Shown in pieces: positions 10,710-31,396 of a DNA stretch of 32,342 nucleotides. A program made the translations under genes and the position numbers. The notes beneath the pieces were generated by a model, which was given only the letters and a program-made list of their open reading frames with translations, was not told the DNA's origin and searched no databases. The number at the start of each line of letters is the position of its first letter. The first letter of the stretch is position 1. This stretch comes from Candidatus Competibacter sp. Its GTDB lineage: Bacteria > Pseudomonadota > Gammaproteobacteria > Competibacterales > Competibacteraceae. The stretch covers positions 1-32,342 of the forward strand of contig JAVMKL010000101.1 of the NCBI GenBank assembly GCA_031732875.1. Direction: 5' to 3'.

Positions 10710-10738
10710 AAGGCGGCCTCCGGGCCGCCTTGTTTTTC
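10710..10738 (+). terminator. Rho-independent terminator of the pnt operon
   Basis: aaggcggcc-tccg-ggccgcctt perfect 9-bp stem followed by gtttttct, 29 nt after the pntB stop. Confidence 0.75.
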
Positions 10739-10951: not shown

Positions 10952-11746
10952 ATGCGAGCCACCCTGTTTGGCAAGGTATTGGCCAGGAGTTTCATCATAA
11001 TGATCGATTACAGCGCGATCGAGGAGGGGTTCGCCCAAGGAGAATTCTTCCTGCAGTATTTGCCGACTGTTTCTCTCGATGACGGTCGCTGCGTCGGCGC
11101 CGAGGCCCTTACCCGGTGGCATCGTCCGTCCGGGATGGTTCACCCCCATGAGTTCATCCCGATTCTGGAAAACACCCCGCTGTCCGGCCGTCTCACCTAT
11201 TGGGTGATCGACACGGTGGCGACCGAACTGTCCGATTGGCTCCGGGCGCACCCCGAAGCGCACGTCAGCATCAACGTGCCGCCGGAAATTCTCGGTCGAG
11301 GTGGGCTGGAATATGCTGGCGAGAAATCCGGGTTGCTGGAATTTGCCCGGCAAATCATTCTGGAAATCATCGAGCGGGGGATACCGGACCAGCTCGGGTT
11401 GCAAGCCCTCGCCGGCGCACCCGATTATGGGATCCGCTTCGCTCTCGACGATGTCACCATGAGCGGGGCCAATCTGGCGCTCCTGGCACGATGCCCCTTC
11501 AACATTATCAAGATCGACCGCGCGGCAGTCGGACAGATCGTGCCGGAAAATCCGCGTCCGCAGTGGCTCGAAGCGTTGGCGGCCCTGCTGCGGACGACGC
11601 ATCTGGACGTGATCGCCGAAGGAGTCGAAACCGCGTATCAGGCTGCGGCGCTGCGGGAGGCTGGAGTCAAGCTGGCCCAGGGATTTTATTTCGCCCGCCC
11701 GACTTCGGCCGCTGGTCTTCGCGAATTTCACGCTCGAAGTGGATAA
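10952..11746 (+). CDS. Stand-alone EAL-domain protein (putative c-di-GMP phosphodiesterase)
   Basis: GAEALTRW (EAL motif), IKIDRAAV, VIAEGVET and AQGFYFARP blocks. The start could be ATG 10952 or ATG 11000. Confidence 0.75.
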   Translation: MRATLFGKVLARSFIIMIDYSAIEEGFAQGEFFLQYLPTVSLDDGRCVGAEALTRWHRPSGMVHPHEFIPILENTPLSGRLTYWVIDTVATELSDWLRAHPEAHVSINVPPEILGRGGLEYAGEKSGLLEFARQIILEIIERGIPDQLGLQALAGAPDYGIRFALDDVTMSGANLALLARCPFNIIKIDRAAVGQIVPENPRPQWLEALAALLRTTHLDVIAEGVETAYQAAALREAGVKLAQGFYFARPTSAAGLREFHARSG

Positions 11747-11763
11747 GTCGAACGACTCCCCTC

Positions 11764-11782
11764 CCCCCTTTGCCAAAGGGGG
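11764..11782 (+). terminator. GC hairpin (cccccttt-g-c-caaaggggg) downstream of the EAL gene; possible terminator or binding palindrome
   Basis: Near-perfect 9-nt palindromic arms. No U-tract follows, so function is uncertain. Confidence 0.3.
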
Positions 11783-11875
11783 CCAGCGATACCGTGACGC
11801 GATGATTTGTCGTCGATTTCGGCTACCATGACGCTCTACTGGCTCGATCCCTTCCTCCCGACCGGAACCACCACG

Positions 11876-12835
11876 ATGCAAGAACTCCCTGCCGGACCTC
11901 ATGCCCTGGTGGCCGACATCGGCGGCACCAACGCCCGTTTCGCGCGGGTGGACGCCGATGGTCGGCCGTACGCCGAACGCAGCCTGCCCGGCGCTGACTT
12001 TCCGGGCCTGACCGCCGCTGCCAAGGCCTATCTCGATGCCACCGGCGGGTCGCGCCCGGTCCGGGCCGCCGTCGCGGTCGCCACGCCGGTGACCGGCGAC
12101 TGGATTCAGTTCACCAACAGCGACTGGTCGTTCTCGATCGAAGCCGCGCGGCGGGAGCTGGGACTGGAACGGCTGACCATCCTCAACGATTTCACCGCGC
12201 TGGCGCTGGCGCTGCCGCTGCTCGGCCCGGACGAACGCCGGACGGTCGGCGGCGGCGCGGCCGCGCCGGAAGCGCCCATCGGCCTGATCGGCGCGGGCAC
12301 TGGCCTGGGCGTGTCGGGACTGGTCTGGTCGGGCGAGCGCTGGATTCCCCTCCAGACCGAAGGTGGGCATGTGACCTTTGCTGCCGCTGACGAACGGGAG
12401 TGGGCGATCGGCCGGATCCTGCAACGGCGGTTCGGCCACGTCTCGCCGGAACGGCTGCTGTCCGGTCCCGGATTGATGAATCTCCACGCCGCGCTGGCCG
12501 AACTGGAAGGCTGGCCGGCCGAATCGCTGGATCCGGCCGACATCACCGACCGGGGCCTGACTGGGGCCTGCCCGCATTGCCGGGACGTGCTGGGCCTGTT
12601 CTGCGGCGCGCTGGGCGCGGCGGCCGGCAATCTGGCGCTTACGCTCGGCGCGCGGGGTGGGGTCTATATCGGCGGCGGCATCGTGCCCCGGCTCGGCGAC
12701 TTTTTTGACCGCTCGACGTTCCGCGCCCGGTTCGAAGCCAAGGGCCGGTTCAGTGGCTATCTGGCGACCATTCCCACTTGGGTGATTACTGCTGCCCATC
12801 CGGCGCTGCGCGGCGTGGCGGCGGCGCTGGACTGA
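11876..12835 (+). CDS. glk: Glucokinase
   Basis: ALVADIGGTNARFARV matches the Glk N-terminal ATP-binding motif (E. coli LVGDVGGTNARLAL), with similarity along the length. Start chosen at MQELPAGPH; ATG 11828 and TTG 11807 are alternatives. Confidence 0.8.
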   Translation: MQELPAGPHALVADIGGTNARFARVDADGRPYAERSLPGADFPGLTAAAKAYLDATGGSRPVRAAVAVATPVTGDWIQFTNSDWSFSIEAARRELGLERLTILNDFTALALALPLLGPDERRTVGGGAAAPEAPIGLIGAGTGLGVSGLVWSGERWIPLQTEGGHVTFAAADEREWAIGRILQRRFGHVSPERLLSGPGLMNLHAALAELEGWPAESLDPADITDRGLTGACPHCRDVLGLFCGALGAAAGNLALTLGARGGVYIGGGIVPRLGDFFDRSTFRARFEAKGRFSGYLATIPTWVITAAHPALRGVAAALD

Positions 12836-12892
12836 CTGGATTAAAGCGGCGACGGCGGCACCGCCAGCAGGGTGAGGGCGGTAGTGCTTCAA

Positions 12893-12975
12893 ATGTGGAT
12901 GCTGAATTATAAGATATTGTATTAATAAAATTATTTATAAATTTGAATCCATATTCACATCAGGAACACTACCGA
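12893..12975 (+). promoter_or_regulatory. Sharply AT-rich promoter/regulatory island upstream of the CBS-domain gene
   Basis: ~80 nt of 'aatgtggatgctgaattataagatattgtattaataaaattatttataaatttgaatccatattcacat' in an otherwise ~65% GC context. GAGG SD lies 7 nt before ATG 12990. Confidence 0.3.
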
Positions 12976-12989
12976 TAACGAGGCGAATC

Positions 12990-13475
12990 ATGCAACCAGG
13001 GCAGCATCCCCGTGTCGCGCACCCGACGCTGAAGCAAGTACTCGCGCAAAAGCCACGCGACCTGCATGTGGTCGACATCGACGCAACGGTGCTGGATGCC
13101 TTGCGAGTGATGGCCGAACGGGATGTCGGGGCCGTTCTGATACTGGACGGCAAACGCCCGGTCGGCCTGTTTACCGAACGTGACTTTGCCCGCCATACCG
13201 TTTCCGATGGCAGCCCGGTTCATCTGACACCGGTCCGCCAAGTGATGGCCGGGAATATCGTTTTTGCCACGCCCGAGCAGACGGTGTTGCAAGGCATGGC
13301 GCTGATGCGCGAACGGTGGCTTCGCTACCTCACGGTGCTCGAAAACGGCCATCCGCTGGGGATGCTATCGATCGGTGATCTACTCGAGGAAATCATCGCC
13401 TACCAGGAACGCGTCCTGAATGCCATCGAGTTAGACCAGCTCGTGCTGTTTGCCCGTGGAACGTACAGTTGCTGA
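12990..13475 (+). CDS. CBS-domain pair protein
   Basis: Two CBS-like repeats (VLDALRVMAERDVGAVLIL...GLFTERDF / VLQGMALMRERWLRYLTVL...GMLSIGDLL). Confidence 0.75.
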   Translation: MQPGQHPRVAHPTLKQVLAQKPRDLHVVDIDATVLDALRVMAERDVGAVLILDGKRPVGLFTERDFARHTVSDGSPVHLTPVRQVMAGNIVFATPEQTVLQGMALMRERWLRYLTVLENGHPLGMLSIGDLLEEIIAYQERVLNAIELDQLVLFARGTYSC

Positions 13476-13487
13476 TCGCGCCTTCCC

Positions 13488-14396
13488 TCATTCCTCGCCG
13501 TGGAGGAACAGCCGGCGATGCGCGTCGGCCAGCGAGCGCAGGTAATCCCAGACCACCCGCACCCGCTTGAGTCGCAGCCGGTCTGCATGAGCGGCCAGCC
13601 AGAACGTATGCTGGAAAGAGGCTTCATCCGGCAGCACCTTGATCAGACGTGGATCGCTGGCTCCGATGTAAGGCGCCAGTACCGCCAGCCCAACCCCAGT
13701 CAAGGCCGCTTCCTTGTGCGCCAGCATGCTGGTGCTGCAGAAGCGCAAATTCGGTTTATCGCAGAGTTTTTCGAGAAACCGTAATTCCTGGCTGAGCAAA
13801 TAGTCGTCGATATAGGCGATGAAGGGATGATCCGCCAGATCGGCACGGGACCGAATCGGCGGATGCGCCGCCAGATAATCCCTGGCCCCATACAGAAAAT
13901 AAGTGAAGTCGCTCCAGCGGGTCACTACATAAGGTCCCCGGCGCGGCGGTTCCAGGGTAATCGCTAAATCCGCCTCGCGGCTGGCCAGATTTGCCAGCCG
14001 GGGCAGAGCCAGCAATTCCAGGGTCAAGCGGGGATGTTCGTCGAGCAGTGGTTTGATCCGCGGCGTCAAAAAAATTACCGCCAGTCCTTCGGGAATGCCC
14101 AGCCGCACTTCGCCGCTGATCGCTACATCCCGATCCGCCAGTTCCTCCGATACCACAGCCACCGTGGATTCGACCATCTCCGCCATGGGCAATAGCGCTT
14201 GGCCAGCCTCGGTCAGGATGAGCCCATCGGGGCGACGGTCGAACAGCCGGGTACCCATCGCCCGTTCGAGCGCATCGATCCGGCGAGCCACCGTGCTATG
14301 TTCGACTCCCAATCGTCGAGCGGCGGGACTTAATCGTCCCAACCGCGCTACTGCCAAAAAATAGCGCAGGTCGTTCCAATCCATTTCGCGTTTCAT
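13488..14396 (-). CDS. LysR-family transcriptional regulator
   Basis: MDWNDLRYFLAVARLGRLSPAARRLGVEHSTVARRIDALE is a LysR wHTH, followed by a substrate-binding domain. Start taken at ATG 14396 (MKREMDW), which has a GAGAGG SD. The track start at 14414 lacks an SD. Confidence 0.85.
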   Translation of the reverse strand: MKREMDWNDLRYFLAVARLGRLSPAARRLGVEHSTVARRIDALERAMGTRLFDRRPDGLILTEAGQALLPMAEMVESTVAVVSEELADRDVAISGEVRLGIPEGLAVIFLTPRIKPLLDEHPRLTLELLALPRLANLASREADLAITLEPPRRGPYVVTRWSDFTYFLYGARDYLAAHPPIRSRADLADHPFIAYIDDYLLSQELRFLEKLCDKPNLRFCSTSMLAHKEAALTGVGLAVLAPYIGASDPRLIKVLPDEASFQHTFWLAAHADRLRLKRVRVVWDYLRSLADAHRRLFLHGEE

Positions 14397-14663
14397 CGCA
14401 TTCCTCTCCGCCATTCTTGCGTAACCGGCCCAACCAGATTTGAGGCTTGTTGTTTATTTATGCACTGAGTTTTCAATATTTTTGGGAATTTTCACCCATC
14501 CTGAGAGCGATTACAGTTAATTTGTCAGGTTTCATCCGTCGTTCGCGATTTGCCAATCCTGCCGCAACTAGAATTTATTTCGGATAGCGGGAGCGATCGG
14601 CCGTCATGGATCGGTTGCAACCGGACACTTCTCACAACGACATCCACCAAGAGGTTAAGCACG
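14397..14663. promoter_or_regulatory. Divergent promoter region between the LysR regulator and the permease / CoA-transferase operon
   Basis: 267-bp AT-rich intergenic region (ttatttatgcactgagttttcaatatttttgggaattttcac...) between divergently oriented genes. This is the expected location of LysR T-N11-A boxes, but no site was defined confidently. Confidence 0.35.
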
Positions 14664-16058
14664 ATGAGTTTCCTGATCGTCATTGGAGCGTTGATCCTGT
14701 TGATGTACGTGGCCTACAAGGGCCATAGCGTGGTGCTGTTCGCGCCTGTCGCCGCCCTGCTGGCGGTGCTGCTGACCGATCCGATTTTGGTTGCGCCGAT
14801 GTATCTCGGCGTGTTCATGGACAAGATGGTCAGCTTCATCAAGCTGTACTTCCCGGTATTCATGCTGGGAGCGGTGTTCGGCAAGGTGGTCGAGTTGTCC
14901 GGCTACTCGAAATCCATCGTGTCGGCGGTGGTCGACGCCATCGGCCACGAGCGGGCAATGCTGTCCATCGTTGTGGTGTGCGCGATCCTTACCTACGGCG
15001 GGGTTTCCCTGTTCGTGGTGGTGTTCGCGGTCTATCCGTTCGCAGCGGAACTGTTCCGGCAGACCCACATCCCGAAACGGCTGATTCCCGGCACGATTGC
15101 ATTAGGGGCGTTCACCTTCACCATGGATTCGCTGCCCGGCACTCCACAGATTCAAAATATCATTCCGACCTCCTTCTTCAACACCACCACCTGGGCCGCC
15201 CCCTGGCTGGGCGTAGTCGGCGGCGTGTTTATCTTCATTGTCGGGATGCTCTATCTCAACTGGCAACGCCGCCGCGCCGAAGTGGCCGGCGAAAGCTACG
15301 GGACCAACCTGATCAACGAGCCGGAACCGTTCACCCACGAAAAGCTGCCCAATCCCATCCTCGCCATCACCCCCCTGCTCCTGGTGGGCATCCTCAATTT
15401 CGCTTTCACCCAACTGGTGCCGATTCTGTACGGCCAAAAATTCGAGCTGACCATGACTGGGATCGGGGCCAAGCCGGTGCCGTTTGAAATCCCCAAGGTT
15501 GCAGCGATCTGGGCGGTGCAAGCGGCGCTGCTGGTGGGCATTCTGTTCGTGGTCATCACCGCCTGGAGGCCGATCAAGGAGAAATTCGCCGAAGGCGCCA
15601 AGTCGGCGGTAGCCGGGTCGCTGCTGGCATCGATGAACACCGCCTCGGAATACGGCTTCGGTGGCGTCATCGCCTCGCTGCCAGGATTCCTGGTGGTGGC
15701 CGATGCGCTACGGGCGATTCCCAACCCGCTGGTCAACGAAGCGATCACCGTCACCACCCTGGCCGGTATCACCGGCTCGGCATCGGGCGGCATGAGCATC
15801 GCCCTCGCTACCATGTCCAACCATTTCATCGAAGTCGCCAAAGCCGCTGACATCCCGCTGGAAGTGCTGCACCGCGTCGCCTCGATGGCCAGCGGTGGCA
15901 TGGACACGCTGCCGCACAACGGCGCGGTCATCACTTTGCTGGCAGTGACCGGTCTGACCCACAAACAGTCCTACAAGGACATCTTCGCGATTACCGTGAT
16001 CAAGACCAGCGCGGTATTCGTGGTGATCGCCTTCTTCTATCTGACCGGCATCTACTGA
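14664..16058 (+). CDS. GntP-family permease (gluconate / short-chain hydroxy-acid:H+ symporter family)
   Basis: 464-aa polytopic membrane protein with GntP-like N-terminal (MSFLIVIGALILLMYVAYKG) and C-terminal (TLPHNGAVITLLAVTGL) blocks. GAGG SD present. Confidence 0.75.
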   Translation: MSFLIVIGALILLMYVAYKGHSVVLFAPVAALLAVLLTDPILVAPMYLGVFMDKMVSFIKLYFPVFMLGAVFGKVVELSGYSKSIVSAVVDAIGHERAMLSIVVVCAILTYGGVSLFVVVFAVYPFAAELFRQTHIPKRLIPGTIALGAFTFTMDSLPGTPQIQNIIPTSFFNTTTWAAPWLGVVGGVFIFIVGMLYLNWQRRRAEVAGESYGTNLINEPEPFTHEKLPNPILAITPLLLVGILNFAFTQLVPILYGQKFELTMTGIGAKPVPFEIPKVAAIWAVQAALLVGILFVVITAWRPIKEKFAEGAKSAVAGSLLASMNTASEYGFGGVIASLPGFLVVADALRAIPNPLVNEAITVTTLAGITGSASGGMSIALATMSNHFIEVAKAADIPLEVLHRVASMASGGMDTLPHNGAVITLLAVTGLTHKQSYKDIFAITVIKTSAVFVVIAFFYLTGIY

Positions 16059-16126
16059 CCTGATCCGTGACGGGGCACGATCCACTTCATCGCGCCCCGT
16101 TCACTACCCAAAGGAGGAACAACGCC

Positions 16127-18139
16127 ATGCAACATCCTCTGCTTGCCTCGCTGCGCATCCCCGAACGCGGCAAGGTCGTCAGTGCCCGCGAGGCCGTCAG
16201 CCTGATCCGTCCCGGCGACGCCGTCGCCACCAGCGGCTTCGTCGGCACCGGTTTCGCCGAAGACATCGCTCGCGCGCTGGAGGAACTCTATCTTGCCCCC
16301 GAGGGCGATCCGAACGCGCCCGGCTTGGAAAAACCGCGTGATTTGACCCTGGTCTACGCCGCCGGCCAAGGCGACGGCAAAGAGCGCGGGCTCAATCATT
16401 TGGGCCACGCGGGACTGGTCAAACGAGTTATTGGCGGCCACTGGGGCCTGGTGCCGAAGCTGCAAGCGCTGGCGGTGGCCGACCAAATCGAAGCTTACAA
16501 CCTGCCGCAGGGCGTGATCACCCATCTGTATCGCGACATCGCTGCCGGCAAGCCGGGCACCCTGACCAAGGTCGGGCTGGGCACGTTCGTCGATCCGCGT
16601 TACGGCGGCGGCAAGCTCAACGCCATCACCCAGGACGATTTGGTCGAACTGATGGTGATCGGCGGTCACGAATATCTGCTTTACAAGGCGTTCCCGATCA
16701 ATGTCGGCATCATCCGGGCCACCACCGCCGACATCGACGGCAACCTGACCATGGAAAAGGAGGCCCTGACCCTGGAGTCGCTGGCGATCGCCACCGCGGT
16801 CCGCAATTCGGGTGGCATCGTCATCGCCCAGGTGGAGCGGGTGGCCGAGCGCGGTTTCATGCGACCCAAGGACGTGCGGGTACCGGGAATCCTGGTGGAT
16901 TGCATCGTGGTCGCGCCGCCGGAACACCATTGGCAGACTTTCGCCACCCCGTACAACCCGGCCTTTTCCGGTGAAATCAAGATACCGCTGGCCTCGATTC
17001 CGCCGATCCCGATGAGCGAGCGCAAGATCATCGCTCGCCGGGCGGCGCTGGAACTGACGCCCAACGCCATCGTGAATCTGGGCATCGGCATGCCGGAGAG
17101 CGTGGCGAACGTCGCCGCCGAGGAAAAGATCATCGATCTGCTCACCCTGACCGCCGAACCGGGGGTGGTGGGCGGCATTCCAGCCGGCGGGCTGGACTTC
17201 GGCGCGTCCACCAACGTGCAGGCCATCATCGACCAGCCGAACCAGTTCGATTTCTACGACGGTGGCGGCCTGGACATCGCGGTGCTGGGCATGGCCGAGG
17301 TGGATCGGTACGGCAATCTCAACGTCTCGAAATTCGGGCCCAGGATCGCCGGCGCCGGCGGATTCATCAATATCAGTCAGAATTCCCGGAAAGTGGTATT
17401 CGCCGGGACCTTCACCGCCGGCGGTCTGGACATCGCGGTGGAACAGGGCCAACTGTGCATCCGGCGCGAAGGGAAAACCGCCAAGTTCGTCGAGACGGTC
17501 GAGCAACGAACCTTCAGCGGCGAGGTCGCCAGTCGTCACAAGCAGCCGGTGCTTTATGTCACCGAGCGGGCGGTGTTCAGGCTGACGGTGGAGGGACCGG
17601 AATTGATCGAGATCGCCCCGGGCATCGATCTGGAACGCGACGTACTGGCCCACATGAAGTTCCAGCCCCGCGTCAGCGCCCAACTGCGGCGGATGGATGC
17701 CCGCATCTTTGGCGAGGAACCCATGGGGCTGCGCGATATCCTGCTGGCGCAACCGCTGGAGCAACGGCTGTCCTACGATCCGGTCAAGAATCTGTTTTTC
17801 CTGAACTTCGAATGGTTGACGGTGCGCAGTCGCGAGGATATCGAAAACATCCGGGCAGCGGTCAGCGGCAAGCTGGAACCGCTGGGCAAGAAAGTGTTCG
17901 CCATCGTCAATTACGACAATTTTTCGATCAGCCCGGAACTGTTGCGGGAATACATGGACATGGTGAGCGAAGTGGTGCAGCGTTATTACATCGGCGTGAC
18001 CCGCTATACCACCAGCGCGTTCCTGCGGGCCCGGCTGGGCGACGCCCTCCGGGAACGCGACCTGGCGCCCCAGATTTACGAAACCGCCGCCGAAGCAGCG
18101 TCGCGGCTCAATCCCTCGCAAGACCTTAACAACCCCTGA
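16127..18139 (+). CDS. Family I CoA-transferase (fused alpha/beta, acetate/propionate CoA-transferase-like)
   Basis: 670 aa, with N- and C-terminal 3-oxoacid CoA-transferase-like halves ([10 protein letters not shown]...GGHWGLVP...; [12 protein letters not shown]...GGLDFGAS...[10 protein letters not shown]). AAGGAGG SD lies 9 nt upstream of ATG 16127. Confidence 0.8.
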
Positions 18140-20367: not shown

Positions 20368-22329
20368 TCACCTCGGCCAGCCATCGCTGGAGTGTCGCCA
20401 ATCTTCAGGGCCACCGGCAAAACCGCCGGCGAGTTGCCGGTTCAGGGCGAGCAGCCGCCGCAAAATTTCAGCGTCTGGCATGGCCGGCTGGTAGTCGTCC
20501 CAACCATACGCCGCCGCCACGGCCGCATCCAGTTGCCGATGGGCCTGATCCAGCCAGGCCGGACGGGCGTTGTAGAGATTGGTCAAGGTGCGCCGGTTCA
20601 GTTCGGCGGCGAATTCCGGTTTGGGAAGCAGTCGGTCGGGATAGCCGGGAACGATTTCGGGAACCCGCTCCACCCATTCCGGCGGATTGAGCCAGTTTTG
20701 CCGCAGCGCGTTCAAGCGGCGCGCGGCTTCGGCGATGGCGGGGAACTGAGGCCCCTCGCCCGCTTGCGGGAGAGGGGTTGGGGTGAGGGCGTTTCGATTC
20801 GGCTGCAAACCAGGGGGAAACGGAAACGTCTCGAAGCAGGTGGCGGCGTTGTAGGTCGGGTCATTTCCAACGCCGTGCCGGCTGGCGTTGGCCAGCGCCC
20901 AGACTTCGTGAATGCGGGAATGCAGAATGCCGCAGGTCGCGTCGTCGTCGCGGGCGATCACGTACAGGCGGCTGTCGGGCAGCACGGCCGAATACAGCCA
21001 GACAAACAGCCGGTGCTTGGCGACGCGGGGCGTGGCGATGTAGCGCGGGACCCGAGCCAGCGCCTTCCGCATACCCGGCATGACCTCGCCATGCCGCCAC
21101 CAATATCTGGCGCGCAACGCCCGCCGGTTCCGTTCCCGTTCCGGCTTCACATGGGCCAGCACATAGGCGAACGGCGCTTCGTACAGCGCTGCCTCGGCCT
21201 CGGACAGTTCGCCGCCGAAGTCGATGATCCAGGTATCGGACGGGCGGCGGGTGATATCCATGCCGTTGGCCCAGGGGCGCAGGACATCACCGTTCGGCCT
21301 GCCGTGAGGGTTGGGTTGTTGAAGCCACTGGCGGGCCAGTTCGCCGGGAATGTCGAAAGCGCCGACTTTGACCGGCCCCTGAAAGCAGGTAGCTATGTTT
21401 TCGCGGAGCCTCACGGCCCTGGTTAAATCGGTTTCACCGGCGGTCAGGTCGGCGTTGACGGTGGCGACGGGGTGGCCGTCGAGTGAAATTCCCCCGGCTT
21501 CGCCACTCCCAAAACATACCAGCGACACCCGCACCGCCGCGCCGTCGTTGATCCAGGGTTCGTCCGACCAGGCGTTGAAGATGCGCGCCTTCACCTCCAG
21601 CCCCTGCGGAGGGAGGGGGGTATTGAGGATGCGTTCCAGCACGGTTCGATTGGCGCCCTTGCGGATGGCCTGCGTCGCCACCAGCCCGGCCCGTTGCGCC
21701 TTCCCCGCCTCAAGCTGCGCCCGCGCCTTCTCGAACCAGTAGCACACCAAATCCGCCCCGCCCGGCACCCGCCCGTCGTAATGGGCGACTTGGCGCGGAT
21801 CGTGGCCCCGCCGCTCCAGCGATCCGGCCAAGTCGGCGAACCGCCCCGCCGCCGCCAGGGTGATGTCGCGGTCGGTGCGGCGGGGGCGGAACTGCGCGGG
21901 GTGATCGAACACCGCGCGCAGCTTGGCGAGGTTCTCCGGCCGGCCGATCTCCTCCAGCCGGATGACGTGGGCTTCCGAGGGCGTGCCGGTGAAATGGGTG
22001 TGAATCTCGATGGTCCGCCGGTCGCAAACCACCAGCAGCGGCGGGTTGTCCAGGGCCAGGGCGTAGGTCATCAACTGCTTGAGCGCCTCGCCCAGATGGC
22101 CGCCCGGGGCCTTGTTCTCCCAGGCGAAACAGCCGCGCTTCCACACATCCGCCCAGCCACGCCCGGCCCCGGTGCGCGCCGCCCCGCGCTCGAAACAATA
22201 GTTCTCCGGGTCGCCGGGCTTGGCGACCCCCAGAATCTCGCAGAGATCGAGAAAGAACGGCTGAGCGCCGGCCCGCTCGCTCAGCGGATTGTCGCGCCAC
22301 AGGGCGATGAATTCAGCGGGAGTTCGCAA
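20368..22329 (-). CDS. MmeI-family (type IIL restriction-modification) homologue that retains the N-terminal PD-(D/E)xK nuclease domain and the C-terminal TRD/C-domain but lacks the methyltransferase catalytic core
   Basis: N-terminus aligns with MmeI (AQPFFLDLCEILGV ~ AKPFLIDFFEVFGI; GWADVWKRGCFAWENK...LLVVCDRRTIEIHT ~ GFVDLFWPGILLIEMK...YVLVCDFQRFRLT, with the D...ExK motif). The C-terminus also aligns (ARIFNAWSDEPW ~ AHRTFSWTNEAS; LTNLYNARPAWLDQAHRQLDAAVAAAYGW ~ LAGLYDPKTMPSELLKAHQKLDKAVDSVYGF). No FxGxG or NPPF/Y motifs are present, and the protein is ~270 aa shorter than MmeI. The only possible start is TTG 22329. Confidence 0.7.
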   Translation of the reverse strand: MRTPAEFIALWRDNPLSERAGAQPFFLDLCEILGVAKPGDPENYCFERGAARTGAGRGWADVWKRGCFAWENKAPGGHLGEALKQLMTYALALDNPPLLVVCDRRTIEIHTHFTGTPSEAHVIRLEEIGRPENLAKLRAVFDHPAQFRPRRTDRDITLAAAGRFADLAGSLERRGHDPRQVAHYDGRVPGGADLVCYWFEKARAQLEAGKAQRAGLVATQAIRKGANRTVLERILNTPLPPQGLEVKARIFNAWSDEPWINDGAAVRVSLVCFGSGEAGGISLDGHPVATVNADLTAGETDLTRAVRLRENIATCFQGPVKVGAFDIPGELARQWLQQPNPHGRPNGDVLRPWANGMDITRRPSDTWIIDFGGELSEAEAALYEAPFAYVLAHVKPERERNRRALRARYWWRHGEVMPGMRKALARVPRYIATPRVAKHRLFVWLYSAVLPDSRLYVIARDDDATCGILHSRIHEVWALANASRHGVGNDPTYNAATCFETFPFPPGLQPNRNALTPTPLPQAGEGPQFPAIAEAARRLNALRQNWLNPPEWVERVPEIVPGYPDRLLPKPEFAAELNRRTLTNLYNARPAWLDQAHRQLDAAVAAAYGWDDYQPAMPDAEILRRLLALNRQLAGGFAGGPEDWRHSSDGWPR

Positions 22330-23985: not shown

Positions 23986-24885
23986 CTAATACGCCGAGTT
24001 CAGCAGGTTCGAGGGAGAGTACTGGTCGGTGAGGATGCGCGCTCCTGGATCCCAGTCGCGCTCGGTCGAAAACAGCGGCACGAGCCAGTCGCCGCCAAAA
24101 CCGAATGGTTTCAGCTTCTCCTCGAGCGAATCGGCGTTCCGCTTGATGATGTCGAGAGCGGGAAGTCCGTCCATTCTGGTCAGGACGATGCGATTTTTCA
24201 GCTTCAGCCTGAGATTGTAGAAGGTCCCGAACACGGATTCGTAGGTCGTCGATTCGTGGGGGTAAAGACGGCTGCTTGAGAACGTATTGGCCACCAGAAC
24301 TCCATCCGCCGTCAACAGGGTCTTGACTTCGAGCAGAAACTCCCGGGTCAGCAGATGTTCCGGAATGTACTCGTGATCGAAGGCATCCAACATGACCAGA
24401 TCGTATCGTTGACCGGACTTGCCCGCACGCTTCACGAAAACCCGCCCGTCCTCCTCGAAAACCCGGACCCGCTGGCTCGGGTTAAAGTCGAAGAATTGTT
24501 GGGCGACTCTGATCACCGCCGGATCGATTTCCACGACATCGATCTCGGCATCCGGAAACATCCCGGCCAGCGCCGTCGGCAAGACGCCTCCCCCCAGTCC
24601 GACGATCAGGACTTTCCTGGGATTGGGATTCAAATACAGCGCGCCCATCATCATCTTCGTATAGCTGAAGACGAACTGGTTCGGATCGTCCAGGGAGCGG
24701 CAGGTTTGCCGGGCGGTTTGATTGCGCCGGGTGAAACTCATGCATCGCTGGTCGTCCTCTTCGTAAACGACGATATTCCGGTAAAGCGACTTTTCGGTGT
24801 GAACGATGGTCATTGCGGCGGATGGCTGGGTCACGAGCGAAGCGACAAAAGCGATCAGCGTATTGAGCCTATTGGCTTGGCGCAT
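23986..24885 (-). CDS. Spermidine-synthase-like (polyamine aminopropyltransferase-fold) protein
   Basis: TEKSLYRNIVVYEED...VLIVGLGGGVLPT...YDLVMLDAFD motifs of the spermidine synthase family. Candidate starts are ATG 24885 (MRQANRL, a hydrophobic leader), ATG 24813 and TTG 24912. Confidence 0.7.
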   Translation of the reverse strand: MRQANRLNTLIAFVASLVTQPSAAMTIVHTEKSLYRNIVVYEEDDQRCMSFTRRNQTARQTCRSLDDPNQFVFSYTKMMMGALYLNPNPRKVLIVGLGGGVLPTALAGMFPDAEIDVVEIDPAVIRVAQQFFDFNPSQRVRVFEEDGRVFVKRAGKSGQRYDLVMLDAFDHEYIPEHLLTREFLLEVKTLLTADGVLVANTFSSSRLYPHESTTYESVFGTFYNLRLKLKNRIVLTRMDGLPALDIIKRNADSLEEKLKPFGFGGDWLVPLFSTERDWDPGARILTDQYSPSNLLNSAY

Positions 24886-25552
24886 CGGTGGAATTTCCGA
24901 ACAGGATGGCAAGAAAACCCAAAATCAGCGAAATGCCGATCAGGCCGGCCAGAATCTGGTCGATCTCGAAATAGAGAACGAGATAGAACGACGTCAGGAT
25001 GGTTCCCACCGCGCTGCCGAAAGTCGAGAAAAAATAAAGCAGCCCCGCCAACTGGCCGCTCCGCTGGGATTCGTTCACCAGCAGGCGGACGGCATAGGGT
25101 GATACCATTCCGGCTATGGTGGTCGGAACGAAGAAGAGCAGGGTGGCCGATATCAGGGAACCGTAACGGGGATCCTGAACCAGGTCGAAGATCCAGTCGA
25201 GGACTGGATTGCCCAGCAGAATCACCGGGATGGTGGTCAGCGCCCCGGCAATCGAGATGAACGCCAGCCGGCGCAAGGTCGGGTCATACAACGACAATCG
25301 GCCGCCCAGGAGATAGCCGACCGACAGCGCCAGCATGAAAACCGTGATCACCCCTCCCCAGACATAGATGCTGTTGCCAAAATTCGGCGCGAGAATGCGC
25401 CCGCTCAACAGTTCGATCGCCATCACGAAAAACCCGGACCATCCAGCGATCAACAAGACGAAAAGGCGGCGCAAAGTCGAGTCCTCGCAACGGTTCGGGC
25501 CGCGCGCGCCGGCATCGCCGACGGCTTGGCGAGATGCTGGTGAGACTATCAT
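24869..25552 (-). CDS. Polytopic membrane protein resembling the N-terminal transmembrane domain of fused membrane spermidine-synthase-like proteins
   Basis: Six or seven hydrophobic helices. It overlaps the downstream SpeE-like ORF by 17-44 nt in a different frame, so the pair may be one gene with a frameshift (see findings). Confidence 0.6.
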   Translation of the reverse strand: MIVSPASRQAVGDAGARGPNRCEDSTLRRLFVLLIAGWSGFFVMAIELLSGRILAPNFGNSIYVWGGVITVFMLALSVGYLLGGRLSLYDPTLRRLAFISIAGALTTIPVILLGNPVLDWIFDLVQDPRYGSLISATLLFFVPTTIAGMVSPYAVRLLVNESQRSGQLAGLLYFFSTFGSAVGTILTSFYLVLYFEIDQILAGLIGISLILGFLAILFGNSTDAPSQ

Positions 25553-25561
25553 GCAAAGTCG

Positions 25562-25588
25562 AAAAAAGCCCGGCCTTGCGGCCGGGCT
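25562..25588 (-). terminator. Rho-independent terminator (copy 1) belonging to the duplicated SPFH 3' segment
   Basis: On the minus strand: agcccggcc-gcaa-ggccgggct followed by tttttt. Confidence 0.7.
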
Positions 25589-25603
25589 CCGGTTTGACGG
25601 CGC

Positions 25604-25823
25604 TCAATGCGCCGGCAGGTCAATGCGCACCGTGTCGCGCAACACGCTATCCAGGCCGCCGAACACGGTCAGCCGTTCGACCTTATCCACGACCTTCTCC
25701 AGCGCTTCCAGTTCCTTGAGCCGCAGCAGCAGGGGGTTCTCTTCCATGAGCTTCGCCGTGTTGAGCAGCGAGCGGGTGGCGGCGATTTCCTCGCGGCGGC
25801 GAATGATGTTGGCCTGCGCCACC
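25604..25823 (-). pseudogene. Orphan 3' fragment of an SPFH/band-7 gene (encodes ...VAQANIIRRREEIAATRSLLNTAKLMEENPLLLRLKELEALEKVVDKVERLTVFGGLDSVLRDTVRIDLPAH*)
   Basis: Matches the last 73 aa of the intact gene at 29722..30870 with a few substitutions. The N-terminal codons of the track ORF come from the insertion. Confidence 0.8.
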
Positions 25824-25852
25824 CTCGCGGAAAAAATCCACAAATATGGAAT

Positions 25853-28762
25853 TCAGTCTTTTTCAGTATGGCTGATGACTTTTTCAACTTGAATATCATT
25901 TATTCCAAAATCGTCCTGAATTTTAGTCTGTTTCTGTTTTCTACAAACTCTGCGAGAGAATATGAAACCCTTGGGGCACAATTCTATCTGTGGCAATATT
26001 CGTTCTTTGTTAGGATTTTCACAAAATTCATCGATATCTTTCTCCTGTGAAATGAGAAATTTAAGAAAATTAACTCCCTTATATTTGCAGGTTATATAGA
26101 GACTTAAAAGGATAAGATAAGAATTTAGGCCAGATTCTGAAATCTGATAATCAACAACCTCTCGATAATAAGCAAATTCCTTAATGGCGTGTTCCGCATT
26201 GTTATTATTCCATGGTACGCCATCATGATTAATAAACGTAAATAGTTTATCCTGATACTTCACCAATCTTTTACGGTAGTCTTCAGTCACTTCAGAACGG
26301 TAAATCTTCCCCGAGATATTTTTGAAGAATTGATTAACATCCCGTTTATGCTTTCCAAGGTATTTTTTCTGGAGTCCATAATTGTCAATAGTGTCGATGA
26401 TATTGCGTAGTAATTTACCAAAATCGGATGCGAGTTTTTTAAGTTCTTCATCCCATGAATTAGCCTGTATATCATTATTAAAGTCCCTGATAAGGTGGAT
26501 TAAACACTTTTGCTGTTCACATGGAAGAGCGTCATAAGGCGCGTAAAAATCAGAAATTAATACACCTCGAAAATCTTTTAGCATATTATTTAGAAAGCTT
26601 CCCTCTCGTGATTTCCTGTAGATATATAAGACTTCTTCCATATTTGTGAAGACCCACACATACTCTTTGCCATCACGCGTGAGATGAACCTCCGTCTCGT
26701 CCACATGGATAAAAGTACCACCTATCATCTTGGCCAGAATTTGCTTGGAAGTTTCCTCATAATATTGGGATAGTAACTGCTTAAATGTGAATACATCAAC
26801 TGTGGATACAGGTAACCCAAAATAGTCATTAAACCTCTTTGCGATTTTTGAAAAACTAGATCGACATGCCACATATTCATACATGGCCCAGCTTTTCAGG
26901 GAATGGAAATACTCGTCCGAACGAAGATATTCTTCGGGTAAGAACCGCTTGCCACATGTCAAACAGCAATGCCGAGTAGTCGTAAACCGTATTACCCATC
27001 TGCTGATACCACTTTGCGTGATTTGAAGGTTTCGAGCTAAGCGAACTAACCGCCTATCCATCTGCCGAGTTATCTCTGTCCCTCTACAGCTAGGGCATTT
27101 TTGGCTACTGATTTCAATGGTATTATTTGCCAAAATATCTTTTTTGCCCTGCCTACTGTGTCTTTTAGATCTCTTTTTCTTTAGAGCCTCGTTTGTTCGA
27201 ATAAAGATTTTATCTCTTTGATAATCGAAGTATGCGCATTTGTTGATAATCCTGAAATCAGGGATAGTGAACTCTGTCCGGCCCCAGTCTGGACGGCTAG
27301 AATCTGGACTCATCTCTCCTACTTGCGATACAGGGTAACCTTCGTGGGTTATGGTCTTGGGTTGCGTCGCCGAAGTTTGCTTCGGGCAGATGGCATAAAG
27401 GAACTCTGTTACCTTCTTCAATGCAGCACAGTCTTCCAAATTGTATGTTGCGAGCATTTCTTTGAGTGCCTGCGAACCAGTTTGCTCCCACTTATTTCGC
27501 CACACAATGCTCTGTATGCCTGAAGCATCGGCTTCAGTCCAGTTAAAACCCAGATAGCCACCGATATGCTTCAAGCCATTGGAATATGTAGGGAAATAGA
27601 TATGCGAATAAATGATTGAGAGAATGTTGACAACACGAGCAAGGATCTTGTCGCCAACCTCCTGTTGGCCCAAATCTTTTATCATTCGTCGCAAGAATAT
27701 TGCCTCATAACTACCATAAGCGTAGAGGTAAAAGTCGTCGAGACGATTCACTACATCGAGAAATTTCTGGAACAGATGGAATTCCTCAGTTTGGCTGTCT
27801 ACCCAAAATGAGTGATGCTCTTCCGCTCCATTCCTCACGATAATCATACCAAGCAGGTATATATATCTGCGTTCCGGGTCACCTTCGAGATCTAAATAGA
27901 TTTGTGTTGATGGATGTGGCAGTTCGGGTGTACCAAGCACGTAGATCTTCTTATTTCGAATAGCCAACGCCTGTAAAGCATGATTGTGTGGTTGACTTTT
28001 TTGCTTTGATCGCGTATTTCTTTTTTGTGGGCGGAAGATACAGGATAGTTGAGTGACAGTGAGGATTCCTCTCTTATTGTATTTTCGGATTTCCTTTTGA
28101 CTCAATCCTTGTAGCAAACTGAGGTCATCCTTTGCTGTCGCATTAACATGGCACCGTTGGCAGAACTCGCAAATTTGGCAGTGTCGGTTAAGCATTAATA
28201 CTGGAGCTACACCACTCTCTTGGATTTCCTTAATTTCTTGTAGTGCTCGTCGTGCGCTTTTATCGCCAGAATCCAGCTTGAATTTTGTGGTATTGCATTC
28301 GCGGCCATGGATCAAAATCCCAACCTGTGGTTGCCTTCCTTGGGTATCGCCGAGGATGCAGCCATGCATTGCAAGCAAGATTTTATGTTGTCTGTTGAGT
28401 TTTTCTGCCTCGTGGAATAATACGGGAATGTAGTGAAATTCTCCTAGTCGTGATGGGCCAACTTCTTTCTGGAGAGAATCAAAGTGGACTGCAATCCTCT
28501 GATCTTCTAGAATCACGTCTGAGAGTAATGATATCCCCCGTTTTAGTGTCGCAAGTGTTAGGGTGACACCATGTGCGGTATCGACTTCTTGGTATCGAGT
28601 TACAAGTTTATGCGTGGCCGCTTGTCGTACATGGTTTCTGGTCTCTTTCTGCAATAATTCATAGGGTGATACGTTACCTTGTTCACGAATCAGCTTCAGG
28701 TATCCTTTGTATTTGCAGTTCAAGTAGCTCTCTAGAATTTCCCCGGTGATCTTCGTGTCCAT
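25853..28762 (-). CDS. 969-aa fusion protein: N-terminal TM0106-family RecB/Cas4-like nuclease plus RNase-H-like (YprB-type 3'-5' exonuclease) domains, fused to a C-terminal IS66-family transposase (zinc ribbon + DDE domain)
   Basis: N-terminus ITGEILESYLNCKYKGYL plus HCQICEFCQRC Cys cluster (Cas4-like). IYLDLEGDPERRYIYLLGMII ... YGSYEAIFL ... NLEDCAAL form an RNase_H_2 / DEDD-like exonuclease triad. CPSCRG...CLTCGKRF is the IS66 zinc finger. FIHVDETEV ... YVWVF ... RGVLISDFYAPYD ... CLIHLIRDF ... NNNAEHAIKEF is an IS66 DDE transposase core. GGAGGTAAGCT SD precedes ATG 28762. Confidence 0.8.
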   Translation of the reverse strand: MDTKITGEILESYLNCKYKGYLKLIREQGNVSPYELLQKETRNHVRQAATHKLVTRYQEVDTAHGVTLTLATLKRGISLLSDVILEDQRIAVHFDSLQKEVGPSRLGEFHYIPVLFHEAEKLNRQHKILLAMHGCILGDTQGRQPQVGILIHGRECNTTKFKLDSGDKSARRALQEIKEIQESGVAPVLMLNRHCQICEFCQRCHVNATAKDDLSLLQGLSQKEIRKYNKRGILTVTQLSCIFRPQKRNTRSKQKSQPHNHALQALAIRNKKIYVLGTPELPHPSTQIYLDLEGDPERRYIYLLGMIIVRNGAEEHHSFWVDSQTEEFHLFQKFLDVVNRLDDFYLYAYGSYEAIFLRRMIKDLGQQEVGDKILARVVNILSIIYSHIYFPTYSNGLKHIGGYLGFNWTEADASGIQSIVWRNKWEQTGSQALKEMLATYNLEDCAALKKVTEFLYAICPKQTSATQPKTITHEGYPVSQVGEMSPDSSRPDWGRTEFTIPDFRIINKCAYFDYQRDKIFIRTNEALKKKRSKRHSRQGKKDILANNTIEISSQKCPSCRGTEITRQMDRRLVRLARNLQITQSGISRWVIRFTTTRHCCLTCGKRFLPEEYLRSDEYFHSLKSWAMYEYVACRSSFSKIAKRFNDYFGLPVSTVDVFTFKQLLSQYYEETSKQILAKMIGGTFIHVDETEVHLTRDGKEYVWVFTNMEEVLYIYRKSREGSFLNNMLKDFRGVLISDFYAPYDALPCEQQKCLIHLIRDFNNDIQANSWDEELKKLASDFGKLLRNIIDTIDNYGLQKKYLGKHKRDVNQFFKNISGKIYRSEVTEDYRKRLVKYQDKLFTFINHDGVPWNNNNAEHAIKEFAYYREVVDYQISESGLNSYLILLSLYITCKYKGVNFLKFLISQEKDIDEFCENPNKERILPQIELCPKGFIFSRRVCRKQKQTKIQDDFGINDIQVEKVISHTEKD

Positions 28763-28939
28763 AGCTTACCTCCAAGGATGAAGTTTCCATTAGCAGATCC
28801 ACGCACATCAGATACTGCACCACTCGACCCCGGTCAGTCACGATGCGTTCCAGTTTCGCTGCCGACAGGCTAATAGGATTGGGCCGGAAGGTGGAACGAG
28901 TCGCGAATACGTCCAGCCGCCCGAGTCGATCCGGGCTGG

Positions 28940-29679
28940 CGTGGAACCCCGAATTATCGCGGAAGCAGCCTCAATGACTTACCGGCTAAAGCCGGTAGGT
29001 TGTTAGAGGCGTAAACGCCCGTTCAGACTCAAGTCAGTTCGGGTTGCGGATGAATCTGCCTGAAGCTCATTCCGCCAGCGCCGGTGACTCGTCCCAGACT
29101 TGGAAGGCACCCGATCCGTCCTCTTGCTCTTCGATATAGCGCTTAACTTGTTCTTCCGTCACTCTGCCCCCACCGTCACGCAGAAATACCCCCTCCCCCA
29201 CAGGTATTGGCTCCAATACCGCTTCTGCAACTCCCGAAATTCCCGCTGCAACCGATAGGAGGATTTACCCTTGAGGTATTGCAGCATCTTTGCCGGCGAC
29301 AGATACGTCGGCGCACTCACCAAGAGATGGACATGATTGGGGCGAATATTTCCCTGTATGACTACCATATCGTGTTCCGCAGCGATCATCCGCAGCAAAT
29401 CCCGGAGCCGGAGCCCGATCTCCCCGCGCAACACTGGATACCCGTACTTCGTCTTCCATACCATGTGGTACTTCAGGTCTGTAACCGTGTGGGCACCACG
29501 CCGATACCGCGCTCGATCTACCATCCGCTGTTCCCGCTCAAGCTGTAGCCCTTGACGAAGGGCGCGTGCTAAAGACGTTTCCGCCTAAAGGCGAAGGTTT
29601 ATATCCTATTGTTTGGAAATCAAACGATGCTGATCGGCGTCAAGCTAAATATTGGCGGAATTTCGGTGGACAGTGGTAC
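28940..29679 (-). mobile_element. IS200-like (IS200/IS605 family) element, ~0.74 kb, with TAAA-loop subterminal hairpins on both sides of tnpA
   Basis: tnpA is flanked by short hairpins cgcc-taaa-ggcg (29581-29592), gccctt-gacg-aagggc (29547-29562), ccggc-taaa-gccgg (28981-28994) and ggcg-taaa-cgcc (29007-29018). The size matches IS200. The left boundary is approximate. Confidence 0.5.
29068..29524 (-). pseudogene. tnpA: IS200/IS605-family Y1 (HuH) transposase tnpA, frameshifted near the 3' end
   Basis: TDLKYHMVWKTKYGYPVL ... HVHLLVSAP (HuH) ... YLKGKSSYRLQ ... RGYFCVTVGAE*. The conserved C-terminus VTEEQVKRYIEEQE continues in another frame immediately after the stop (gcaGAGtgacggaagaa), extending to TGA at 29068. 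Confidence 0.75.
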
Positions 29680-29706
29680 AAAAAAGCCCGGCCTTGCGGC
29701 CGGGCT
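29680..29706 (-). terminator. Rho-independent terminator of the intact SPFH gene (repeat copy 2)
   Basis: On the minus strand: agcccggcc-gcaa-ggccgggct followed by tttttt. The IS200-like LE begins immediately 3' of the T-run. Confidence 0.7.
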
Positions 29707-29941
29707 CCGGTTTGACGGCGCTCAATGCGCCGGCAGGTCAATGCGCACCGTATCGCGCAACACGCCATCCAGGCCACCGAACACGGTCAGCCGTTCGACC
29801 TTGTCGACCACCTTCTCCAGCGCCTCCAGTTCCTTGAGCCGCAGCAGCAGGGGGTTCTCCTCCATCAGCTTCGCCGTGTTGAGCAGCGAGCGGGTGGCGG
29901 CGGTTTCCTCGCGCCGGCGGATGACGTTGGCCTGCGCCACC
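29680..29941. repeat. Direct repeat copy 2 (262 bp) = native 3' end of the SPFH gene plus terminator
   Basis: See copy 1 (25562..25823). Confidence 0.8.
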
Positions 29942-30870
29942 TTCTCCGCCTGCACGACCTGGTTGAGAATGTCCTTCATCTCGCCCGGCAGGATCACGTC
30001 CTTCAAGCCGACCGTCTCCAGTTCCAGACCGTGCGGGCGAACCTTCTCGACCGCGTAGTCCCACACGGCCCGATCCAGTTCGTCCTTGTCGCCGAGCAGC
30101 ACGTCCAGGGTGCGGGTACCGATGGTCTGGCGCAGACCGAACTGCAAGGTCCGGTACAGGTAGTCGCCGCTGTTGCCCAGTTCGGCGCGAGCCTTCACCG
30201 GATCGGCGATCCGGTAGACCGCCGACAGGTTCACCCGCAGGCTGACCTTGTCCTTGGTCAGGATTTCCTGGCCGGAGACCTCCAGGGTCTGCAAGCGCAG
30301 GTCCACCGACTCTACCTTCACCGCCCGGTTGAACCGCCAGAAGGCGTGCAGGCCGGGCGACAGGGTACGGACCAGCTCGCCGTCCACCAGCAACAGACCG
30401 ATGTGGTTGTCCTCCACCTCGGCGACCTGAATGAAACCGGTCACATTCTTGACCAGGGTCGCCGACGGCCGCGCCAGCAGGGCCGCGTGCGCCCGCGACA
30501 GGGCGTAATCGGTGGCGATGTTGATCGACTCGACGCGAACCTCCACCGGACCCCGCCAGTAGACCCGACGGGTCGCGGGGGGCAACACGCCATCCAGACG
30601 ACCGTTCTTGTAGATCAGGCCAACCTGCCGGTCGCCGGTCTCGACGACCTGAAAATGGCGCTCGATCAGCTCCTGGTCGGTCTTCAACAGCACGTCCAGC
30701 CAGGGGTGCTCGAACTCGGCCACGGTTAGATCGTACCGCTGCACCTCGTGGCGGTTCAGAGGATCGAGCCAACGGTAAATACCCGGTTCCAGAATGGCCG
30801 CCAGCCGGCGGTCGTACAGGTGGAGCCCACGCTCGTTCTGGGCGATCACGATTCGCTTGTAACCCAACAT
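29722..30870 (-). CDS. SPFH/band-7 (stomatin/slipin-like) domain protein, apparently soluble (no N-terminal TM helix)
   Basis: The C-terminal half carries the SPFH core and coiled-coil (RTLQFGLRQTIGTRTLDVLLGDKDELD...ILPGEMKDILNQVVQAEKVAQANVIRRREE...). Start MLGYKRIVIA at 30870 has an AAGGAG SD. The upstream part of the 443-aa track ORF lacks a start signal. Confidence 0.75.
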   Translation of the reverse strand: MLGYKRIVIAQNERGLHLYDRRLAAILEPGIYRWLDPLNRHEVQRYDLTVAEFEHPWLDVLLKTDQELIERHFQVVETGDRQVGLIYKNGRLDGVLPPATRRVYWRGPVEVRVESINIATDYALSRAHAALLARPSATLVKNVTGFIQVAEVEDNHIGLLLVDGELVRTLSPGLHAFWRFNRAVKVESVDLRLQTLEVSGQEILTKDKVSLRVNLSAVYRIADPVKARAELGNSGDYLYRTLQFGLRQTIGTRTLDVLLGDKDELDRAVWDYAVEKVRPHGLELETVGLKDVILPGEMKDILNQVVQAEKVAQANVIRRREETAATRSLLNTAKLMEENPLLLRLKELEALEKVVDKVERLTVFGGLDGVLRDTVRIDLPAH

Positions 30871-31320: not shown

Positions 31321-31396
31321 TGGTGGAAAAGGAGGGAGTCGAACCCTCGACCGTCTGATGATGAGTCAGATGCTCTACCCGCTGAGCTACTTTCCG
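31321..31396 (-). tRNA. tRNA-like gene with CAT anticodon (tRNA-Met/Ile2-like), 76 nt including encoded CCA, with atypical features
   Basis: The minus strand reads CGGAAAG-TA-GCTC-AGCGGGTA-GAGC-A-TCTGA-CTCATCA-TCAGA-CGGTC-GAGGG-TTCGACT-CCCTC-CTTTTCC-A-CCA. It has perfect D, anticodon and T stems. Atypical features are a C1:C72 mismatch and C at position 37. Confidence 0.6.

Follow-up and report, generated by a model that had tools for sequence, protein, structure and literature searches.

In a 32,342-nt contig of Candidatus Competibacter sp. (JAVMKL010000101.1, assembly GCA_031732875.1; the whole stretch is referred to below as the window), foreign DNA lies behind an SPFH/Band_7 gene and is bracketed by two copies of that gene's 3′ end. 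The insert is a composite of a 255-nt trmO fragment, a ~2.95-kb single-gene core encoding a fusion of a RecB/Cas4-like nuclease with an IS66 transposase, and a later IS200 element. The structure as a whole is an IS66-derived transposon combined with an integration that restores the 3′ end of a gene. We favor an integrase-free import, through a carried 3′ end or a related allele, with support that comes mainly from other loci. Our best model, to which we give a probability of roughly 0.4, is that a unit carrying the SPFH 3′ end recombined into the homologous site.

Duplication of the SPFH 3′ end

A repeat search and alignment identified a direct repeat of 265 nt (25562–25826 and 29680–29944), which is ungapped and 95% identical, with 14 mismatches. 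Copy 2 (29680–29944, minus strand) contains the last 223 nt of the SPFH gene, the stop codon, a spacer, and a terminator hairpin (29685–29706) with its T-run; it is joined to the intact target gene (29722–30870, minus strand; PF01145), whose longest open reading frame (ORF) reaches 31053. Copy 1 (25562–25826, minus strand) is an orphan SPFH 3′ fragment with its own terminator (hairpin 25567–25588) and ends 10 nt before the first native gene downstream (24869–25552, minus strand), the N-terminal part of a fused MFS/spermidine-synthase-like gene. An earlier note, made from the letters of the window, had described a gapless 262-bp repeat of ~95% identity that copies the SPFH 3′ end and terminator, with copy 2 continuous with the intact gene and copy 1 an orphan joined to the downstream genes; alignment and gene map agree on each point, the few nucleotides of difference in length reflecting fuzzy edges. 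The repeats restore the 3′ end of the target gene, as those of attL/attR-type elements do. The SPFH protein is 95–96% identical in amino acid sequence to homologues in Candidatus Competibacter metagenome-assembled genomes (MAGs), and GC content is 32–47% over the fusion gene versus ~63% in the flanks. Mapping of the substitutions along the repeat, also proposed in the earlier note, places all 14 mismatches within 25634–25824; the 72 nt at the terminator end (25562–25633) are identical in both copies (P ∼0.01 if mismatches were evenly spread).

The same insertion is present in three related contigs: L012, a Candidatus Competibacter sp. contig of 59 kb from a MAG, whose positions 9364–16215 match window positions 28968–22141 at 96%; L002, a 92%-identical Logan contig derived from a different run; and L171, an ENA contig (90% identical). 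A further Logan contig, L001, is identical to the window. The insert is absent and the repeat segment single-copy in L010, L011, L013–L018 and L028, and in L028 (Contendobacter) SPFH leads straight into the MFS/SpeE-like genes, which represents the empty site. Both window copies are homologous to the one resident segment in these empty sites, and a single old integration, common to a Candidatus Competibacter sub-lineage, left the repeat as its footprint. An exact look-up of the window SPFH protein, seeking near-identical strains with an empty site, found nothing on record.

Repeats that exceed the assembly k-mer can be mis-joined, and the short Logan contigs do break within the repeat, but identical junctions are seen in four assemblies of different methods, one of them a 59-kb contig, and no relative has the duplicated segment without the insert. 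These shared junctions in L012, L002 and L171, together with the single-copy insert-free relatives, therefore exclude, to the point of extreme improbability, both an assembly artefact and an ancestral tandem duplication independent of the insert, the two possibilities that the earlier note had set against its own account.

The insert is composite

The ~3.9 kb between the repeats is foreign to the locus, as the earlier note had claimed, but it is not one element. Next to the orphan is the transposon core (25827–28775, minus strand), whose homology with L170, a copy at an unrelated site, starts 13 nt upstream of the ATG and which carries the fusion gene (25853–28762, minus strand). Beyond it lies a segment, S, in two parts, a proximal one (28776–28968, minus strand) and a distal one (29618–29679, minus strand) that abuts the SPFH terminator at a junction designated J1. 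Together these form 255 nt of a TrmO_N fragment (PF01980, E 5.6e-9, profile positions 62–104 of 116) with an internal stop codon. S is missing from the empty site and was not found elsewhere in the fetched SPFH loci; the proximal part lies outside the conserved core and is not native to the locus. As homology between related cores starts 1–21 nt before the ATG, S is a carried flank, belonging neither to the element nor to the native DNA, and its nature as a piece of trmO outside both the core and the empty site suggests that the core once lay in a trmO gene and brought the piece along. A protein search for the source of the fragment returned as sole relative the same fragment in L012, annotated 'TrmO family methyltransferase'.

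In L002, L012 and L171 the position equivalent to window 28968 is joined directly to 29618; positions 28969–29617 (minus strand) are therefore a later, 649-bp IS200 confined to the window lineage, a secondary insertion into S whose precise ends were set by comparison with these IS200-free copies. Like other IS200/IS605 elements it encodes a Y1 transposase (tnpA 29159–29524; PF01797, E 6.7e-32; NF033573, score 111, cut-off 55) and has subterminal hairpins, while inverted repeats and a target duplication are lacking; to our knowledge elements of this type make no such duplication. The earlier note had listed its TnpA as a candidate enzyme, and it is the sole other transposase between the repeats. 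However, L002, L012 and L171 share the repeats and junctions yet lack this element, and both its ends lie inside S, making it next to impossible that IS200 created or mobilized the structure. L012 has a different insertion in S, a 107-nt miniature-inverted-repeat-like sequence (L012 9222–9328) that is seen only there, ~30 nt from the IS200 site of the window; with these two insertions, S evidently tolerates or attracts small insertions. In the window, L012, L002 and L171, the repeats neither enclose nor adjoin a tyrosine or serine recombinase gene, upholding the earlier note in this respect.

The right junction is best preserved in L171, where it reads stop codon ... GGGTTCGCGACGAATAG GCAATCAT / CAACCAAGTGGTGCAGGCGGAGAAGGTGGCGCAGG. 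L171 keeps ~47 nt that are missing from this junction in the window, L012 and L002, and the gap lies between short GGT repeats. A ~47-nt deletion has thus cost the core its 3′ tip and the orphan 22 nt. The extra nucleotides of L171 extend the original repeat to at least 287 nt, from the position equivalent to window 29966, and the inner repeat edge at 25826/25827 is secondary, having been reshaped by the deletion. The orphan of L171 begins 8 nt past the last base shared with L170; one junction lies just past the SPFH terminator, and the other at least 287 nt upstream within SPFH, no more than ~8 nt from the 3′ end of the core. The core in the window is probably no longer able to move. The 969-aa ORF and the orphan fragment (25604–25852) share a reading frame, with only the TGA stop at 25853–25855 between them, and this is probably a coincidental product of the same deletion.

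A large family of nuclease–transposase fusions

The fusion gene encodes a 969-aa protein. Its N-terminus is a TM0106 RecB/Cas4-like nuclease with an RNase_H_2 exonuclease domain, for which TIGR03491 scores 255 bits against a cut-off of 97.45 and covers residues 6–455 (profile positions 2–462 of 462). Residues 531–903 then comprise a zinc finger and the IS66 DDE domain. The C-terminal half matches PF03050 (DDE_Tnp_IS66) at E 6.3e-27, and the IS66 transposase model NF033517 aligns over positions 3–380 of 387, albeit with a score of 173 against a cut-off of 180. Across 30 homologues there is no variation in residues C16, C195, C198 and C204, in the exonuclease DxE motif, or in the DETEV, SDFY and NNNAEH motifs (D688, D738, E857). 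A role as a defence-system member was considered and rejected, PADLOC giving just weak Cas4 matches (E 2.5e-7 for the Cas4-like match of the fusion protein).

Protein searching recovered 2153 fusion relatives among 8000 candidates scored, many of them named 'predicted RecB family nuclease'; none was found in viral contigs. In the searchable text of the literature, the sole mention of the architecture is a passing one, of a RecB-like nuclease fused to a transposase in Solibacter usitatus (PMC3469429). The gene is intact in all four Competibacter copies and has dN/dS values of 0.17–0.29, showing purifying selection, though the core is missing its 3′ tip in three of them. The window and L012 diverge in a mosaic fashion, by ~0.4% over 27759–25960, ~5% over 28559–27760 in the nuclease part, and ~10% over 25959–25763 at the 3′ end, which suggests recent recombination between fusion-gene copies of different strains. 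We considered whether the element is younger than its flanks and rejected this; the low divergence is confined to the 1.8-kb core tract and has no bearing on integration.

Five independent sets of related cores at unrelated sites were compared (L170/L171, L100/L172, L136/L161/L156, L149/L150 and L003/L170). In each, homology ends 1–21 nt before the ATG and within tens of nucleotides past the stop codon, and this repeated loss of homology at the same edges defines a mobile core of ~2.75–2.97 kb with sharp ends. Inspection of 70 family loci for terminal inverted repeats using blastn-short, and local alignment of the mapped core ends, gave only chance-level matches; a 16-nt inverted match in L170 is no better than those of other loci. 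No short target duplication is shared at eight mapped junction pairs. At several pre-insertion sites (L100, L136, L161 and L170) a small hairpin or palindrome has the junction in its loop, e.g. TCTGATGCAGC ... GCTGCAATCAGA in L170. Across nine reconstructed sites, however, the z-scores for a hairpin target are mostly unremarkable and not significant overall. In the 5′ region, an Rfam scan gave sub-threshold terminator-hairpin matches alone, and a search for promoters and terminators produced no excess over shuffled sequence.

A distinct arrangement occurs in L004–L009 (e.g. L004 3004–8931), where two tandem fusion paralogues of 911 and 976 aa have as neighbours genes for a TniB-type ATPase and for a 744-aa product whose helix-turn-helix matches are weak. 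This setting may be Tn7-like or Tn5053-like.

Gene-end duplications recur around fusion-gene relatives

Among 80 metagenomic loci fetched, 58 had enough flanking sequence (≥400 nt upstream and ≥300 nt downstream) to be tested for bracketing direct repeats. Repeats of at least 50 nt were present at seven of these 58, compared to four of 186 controls consisting of random 2.75-kb segments in unrelated loci (P = 0.005). The repeat in L152 was rejected as a gene-end duplication, being REP-like, and six of the seven are thus relevant. The L152 unit is ~90 nt long and strongly palindromic (fold energy −64 kcal/mol), with at least four copies around the fusion gene (3696–3784, 4991–5080, 5337–5460 and 8858–8985). 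A protein-level repeat search using tblastx gave 8/61 against 8/124 controls, with no significant enrichment. The flanking repeat is an enriched but minority feature of the family.

With L003 and the window counted in, five loci clearly duplicate the end of a protein-coding gene, from its last 100 to at least ~290 nt, through the stop codon and a further 10–45 nt. The genes concerned encode SPFH in the window, a Big-domain protein in L120, SpoVR in L003, a protein read as PFOR-like in L145, and a tyrosine integrase next to tRNA-Val in L149. The target gene and the fusion gene may share a strand or lie on opposite ones; in every case a spacer of 150–770 nt from outside the core lies on the 5′ side of the fusion gene. 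No common motif was found at the repeat edges of nine loci, in which the targets differ and the inner edge of the window is deleted. Toxin–antitoxin remnants lie inside the repeat-bounded segments of L003 and L145, and tyrosine recombinase genes are beside the fusion gene in L149 and L178.

L145 has an array in which ~95 nt and the stop codon of the PFOR-like gene end are present in three copies (1–1958, 6000–6420), separating a ParE/antitoxin cassette, an HNH-endonuclease cassette, and the fusion-gene unit. The presence of these other cassettes between gene-end copies argues that the repeat-making process is not tied in cis to the fusion gene, and the array looks like serial accretion at one conserved gene end. 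Other relatives are simpler. No flanking repeats were found around the plasmid copies of Acaryochloris and Calothrix, and in L172 the core is a plain insertion inside a MoxR/DUF58/VWA operon (7144–11136), 2 nt past the upstream stop codon and with no flanking repeat. A 51-aa ORF after the L172 core overlaps the start of the next gene and is probably a displaced DUF58 gene end.

Selection and conversion between the repeat copies

If a gene end were duplicated in situ and the orphan then drifted, a copy-to-copy dN/dS of ~0.5 or higher would be expected. The values observed are 0.13 in the window (dS 0.19), 0.27 in L120 (dS 0.39), 0.26 in L145 (dS 0.54) and 0.13 in L003 (dS 0.73), and with 53 non-synonymous and 61 synonymous differences pooled, the neutral-orphan drift model is rejected (P = 3e-4). 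The low dN/dS at the more diverged loci indicates that most divergence arose while both copies were working gene ends, and therefore that one copy came from another genome.

At the SPFH locus itself the copies have a more complicated history. Those of L012 differ at one of 264 positions (99.6% identical) and have nine private states in common; at 25622/29740, t is found in both window copies and c in all other genomes. Such lineage-specific bases, common to both copies of a genome, show that the copies undergo gene conversion. The window orphan has private changes at 25807, 25802, 25796, 25785, 25706 and 25648, three of them non-synonymous, and four of the six are missing from the orphans of L171, L012 and L002. 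At 25748, 25742, 25685 and 25658 the orphan has the state of the insert-free relatives and copy 2 that of L012, both alleles occurring in Competibacter. The 95% identity is accordingly a mix of orphan decay, allele differences and conversion, and no measure of age. The near-identity in L012, the shared lineage bases and the private decay of the window orphan also remove the ground on which the earlier note had held the repeats too divergent for a target-site duplication.

Other features of the locus

The ORFs at 24869–25552 and 23986–24912 overlap and jointly match one 'fused MFS/spermidine synthase' model, through either a frameshift or a natural split. On the other side, a tRNA-Met gene (31321–31396, minus strand) lies ~270 nt upstream of the longest SPFH ORF and ~450 nt from the ATG at 30870; it is also kept in the insert-free relatives and is not an insertion edge. 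A 653-aa ORF (20368–22329, minus strand) resembles MmeI-like type IIG restriction-methyltransferases in the N- and C-terminal parts of the profile, the middle being unmatched, and is possibly internally deleted. The insert-free relative L013 has an 87-nt orphan piece of internal SPFH sequence (15426–15512) that matches the intact gene, located 6 kb upstream, at 98.9% identity. This orphan lies in low-GC surroundings, with a truncated pntB on one side and an IS4-like transposase on the other, and represents a second, different SPFH rearrangement.

How the repeat may have arisen

In the model that we favor, the core would first have inserted into a trmO gene and later moved together with adjoining DNA. 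A unit consisting of SPFH 3′ end and terminator, trmO fragment and core would then have entered a chromosome with an empty site by recombination in the homologous SPFH 3′ end, either as a Campbell-type single crossover of a circular form or by homology-facilitated illegitimate recombination. SPFH would thereby remain intact, followed by the unit and by an orphan 3′ end. Integration of this kind could be left to homologous recombination by the host, with the fusion enzyme required only for excising the unit, or copying it out, at its exact 3′ end; the position of the right junction at the core 3′ end suggests that the enzyme sets one end of the unit. Later recombination between the repeats could free a circle with one copy, providing homology for the next integration. 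Subsequent events at the locus were the ~47-nt deletion at the right junction, insertion of IS200 into S in the window and of the 107-nt sequence in L012, gene conversion between the copies, and decay of the window orphan. The proposal in the earlier note of a replacement 3′ end or a related allele stands as the preferred explanation, mainly by virtue of purifying selection at other loci, without the imported end being assigned to copy 2.

Several points weigh against this import. The analysis turned up no circular form, donor state or recently vacated site, and J1, joining the terminator to mid-trmO, needs an earlier illegitimate or one-ended event. Recombination between sequences that are 75–87% identical, as in some loci, is inefficient. 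The dN/dS values are based on 40–100 codons per locus, and in the window the evolution of both copies as working genes is not separable from allele import and gene conversion. Comparison with insert-free relatives, which the earlier note had offered as a way of matching one copy to the empty site, gave a single copy there but did not identify the imported one in the window, because the 3′ 72 nt are homogenized. The original Competibacter copies are near-identical (99.6% in L012, with the L171 and L002 orphans matching the functional consensus), and an in-situ duplication therefore fits this locus equally well. Finally, ~88% of the testable relatives have no flanking repeat, nor do the two plasmid copies or the operon-embedded L172.

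That near-identity, and the adjacency of the repeats to the unit on both sides, would also follow from a long target duplication made by the transposon itself, which we consider unlikely, if the least so of the alternatives. Here the trmO fragment and core would have inserted behind the SPFH terminator in a one-ended or replicative manner, with the precise 3′ end of the core joined to one target strand, the other end resolved ~290 bp away and the resident DNA between copied, while an undefined 5′ end carried the flank. Only one event is needed at this locus, and the layout of repeat, spacer with core, and repeat is seen in both target orientations, as simple insertion predicts. The family lacks inverted repeats and short target duplications, so its chemistry may be unusual, and all three predicted catalytic domains are conserved. 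However, this does not predict that the copies of L120, L145 and L003 diverged mostly under purifying selection, and the repeat lengths range from ~100 nt to ~290 nt or more; we know of no DDE enzyme that makes staggered cuts of such size. Most copies have no repeat, L172 being a plain operon insertion, and the L145 array contains repeat-bounded cassettes without a fusion gene. Purifying selection on both copies does follow if the locus is a decayed site-specific island, in which a lost recombinase integrated at the SPFH 3′ end with a replacement end that became the working one, the core was a passenger in a trmO gene of the island, and deletions, one of them from the end of the core, removed the rest; in a variant, the fusion protein is itself the recombinase. 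Arrays of the L145 type would represent tandem accretion, and the toxin–antitoxin remnants in L003 and L145 and the recombinase genes adjoining the fusion gene in L149 and L178 are in keeping with an island. This is nevertheless somewhat less probable again. None of the four Competibacter copies has an integrase, two independent deletions are needed, one of them exactly at the repeat end (J1), no core motif is conserved at the repeat edges across loci, and the repeats are variable in length and in how they are oriented toward the fusion gene. The duplicated gene of L149, moreover, is the integrase itself, which makes it the target and not the agent.

Relationship to known systems and implications

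The fusion resembles the single-ORF ISBst12-like group of IS66 elements in having a C-terminal zinc finger and a TnpC-type DDE_Tnp_IS66 domain. It differs in the 520-aa TM0106 nuclease/exonuclease at its N-terminus. The accessory tnpA and tnpB genes that lie upstream of tnpC in IS66, and are absent from the ISBst12 group, are lacking here, the core starting 1–21 nt before its single ORF; neither IS66-type terminal inverted repeats (~15–30 bp, typically starting GTAA) nor 8-bp target duplications were found in the family loci and junctions. As a member of the TM0106 family (TIGR03491/COG2251) it matches the whole model over residues 6–455, with four cysteines and the exonuclease motifs invariant, whereas stand-alone members are without the transposase half.

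The element e14 and phage 21 integrate at icd carrying a replacement 3′ end, using a tyrosine integrase and a short crossover core. The SPFH locus has the same arrangement of intact gene, insert and similar orphan 3′ fragment, with the gene remaining functional, but here there is no integrase and no conserved core motif, and the repeats of the family range from 100 nt to at least ~290 nt. In ISEcp1/IS1380 and in one-ended events of the Tn3 family, one end is precise and variable adjoining DNA is carried, with 5-bp target duplications. The precise end and the travelling trmO fragment are alike, although the enzyme family is different and flank capture is putative for the present one. Orphan arrays form when incoming DNA recombines at a conserved gene end and displaces the old 3′ part downstream, the new tip being a different toxin. 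Examples of arrays built in this way, at the end of a conserved upstream gene, are the orphan modules of type VI secretion system (T6SS) effector/immunity genes and of Rhs/CdiA (see PMC5361080). The displaced orphan and the build-up of an array, as in L145, are shared with these systems; here both ends are functionally equal and the cargo is a transposon.

Long imperfect repeats that restore the 3′ end of a gene are usually read as the mark of an integrase, and here, as around some relatives of the fusion gene, they bracket a transposon-type gene without one. We think it doubtful, albeit worth stating, that the fusions, with more than 2000 database relatives and sharp ends, are an undescribed class of prokaryotic transposon whose own chemistry, with one precise end and the second junction formed at a distance, makes gene-end duplications of 100–300 bp; were this so, the class would carry adjacent donor DNA, and the duplications would serve as homology for excision and re-integration elsewhere. 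If instead the favored import is correct, host recombination via a carried gene end would be a simple and largely overlooked means by which DNA that is neither conjugative nor phage-borne reaches the same chromosomal site in related genomes. The family is large and widespread, with three predicted nucleic-acid-processing domains in one protein and no described mechanism, and it merits an experimental look whatever the origin of the repeats.

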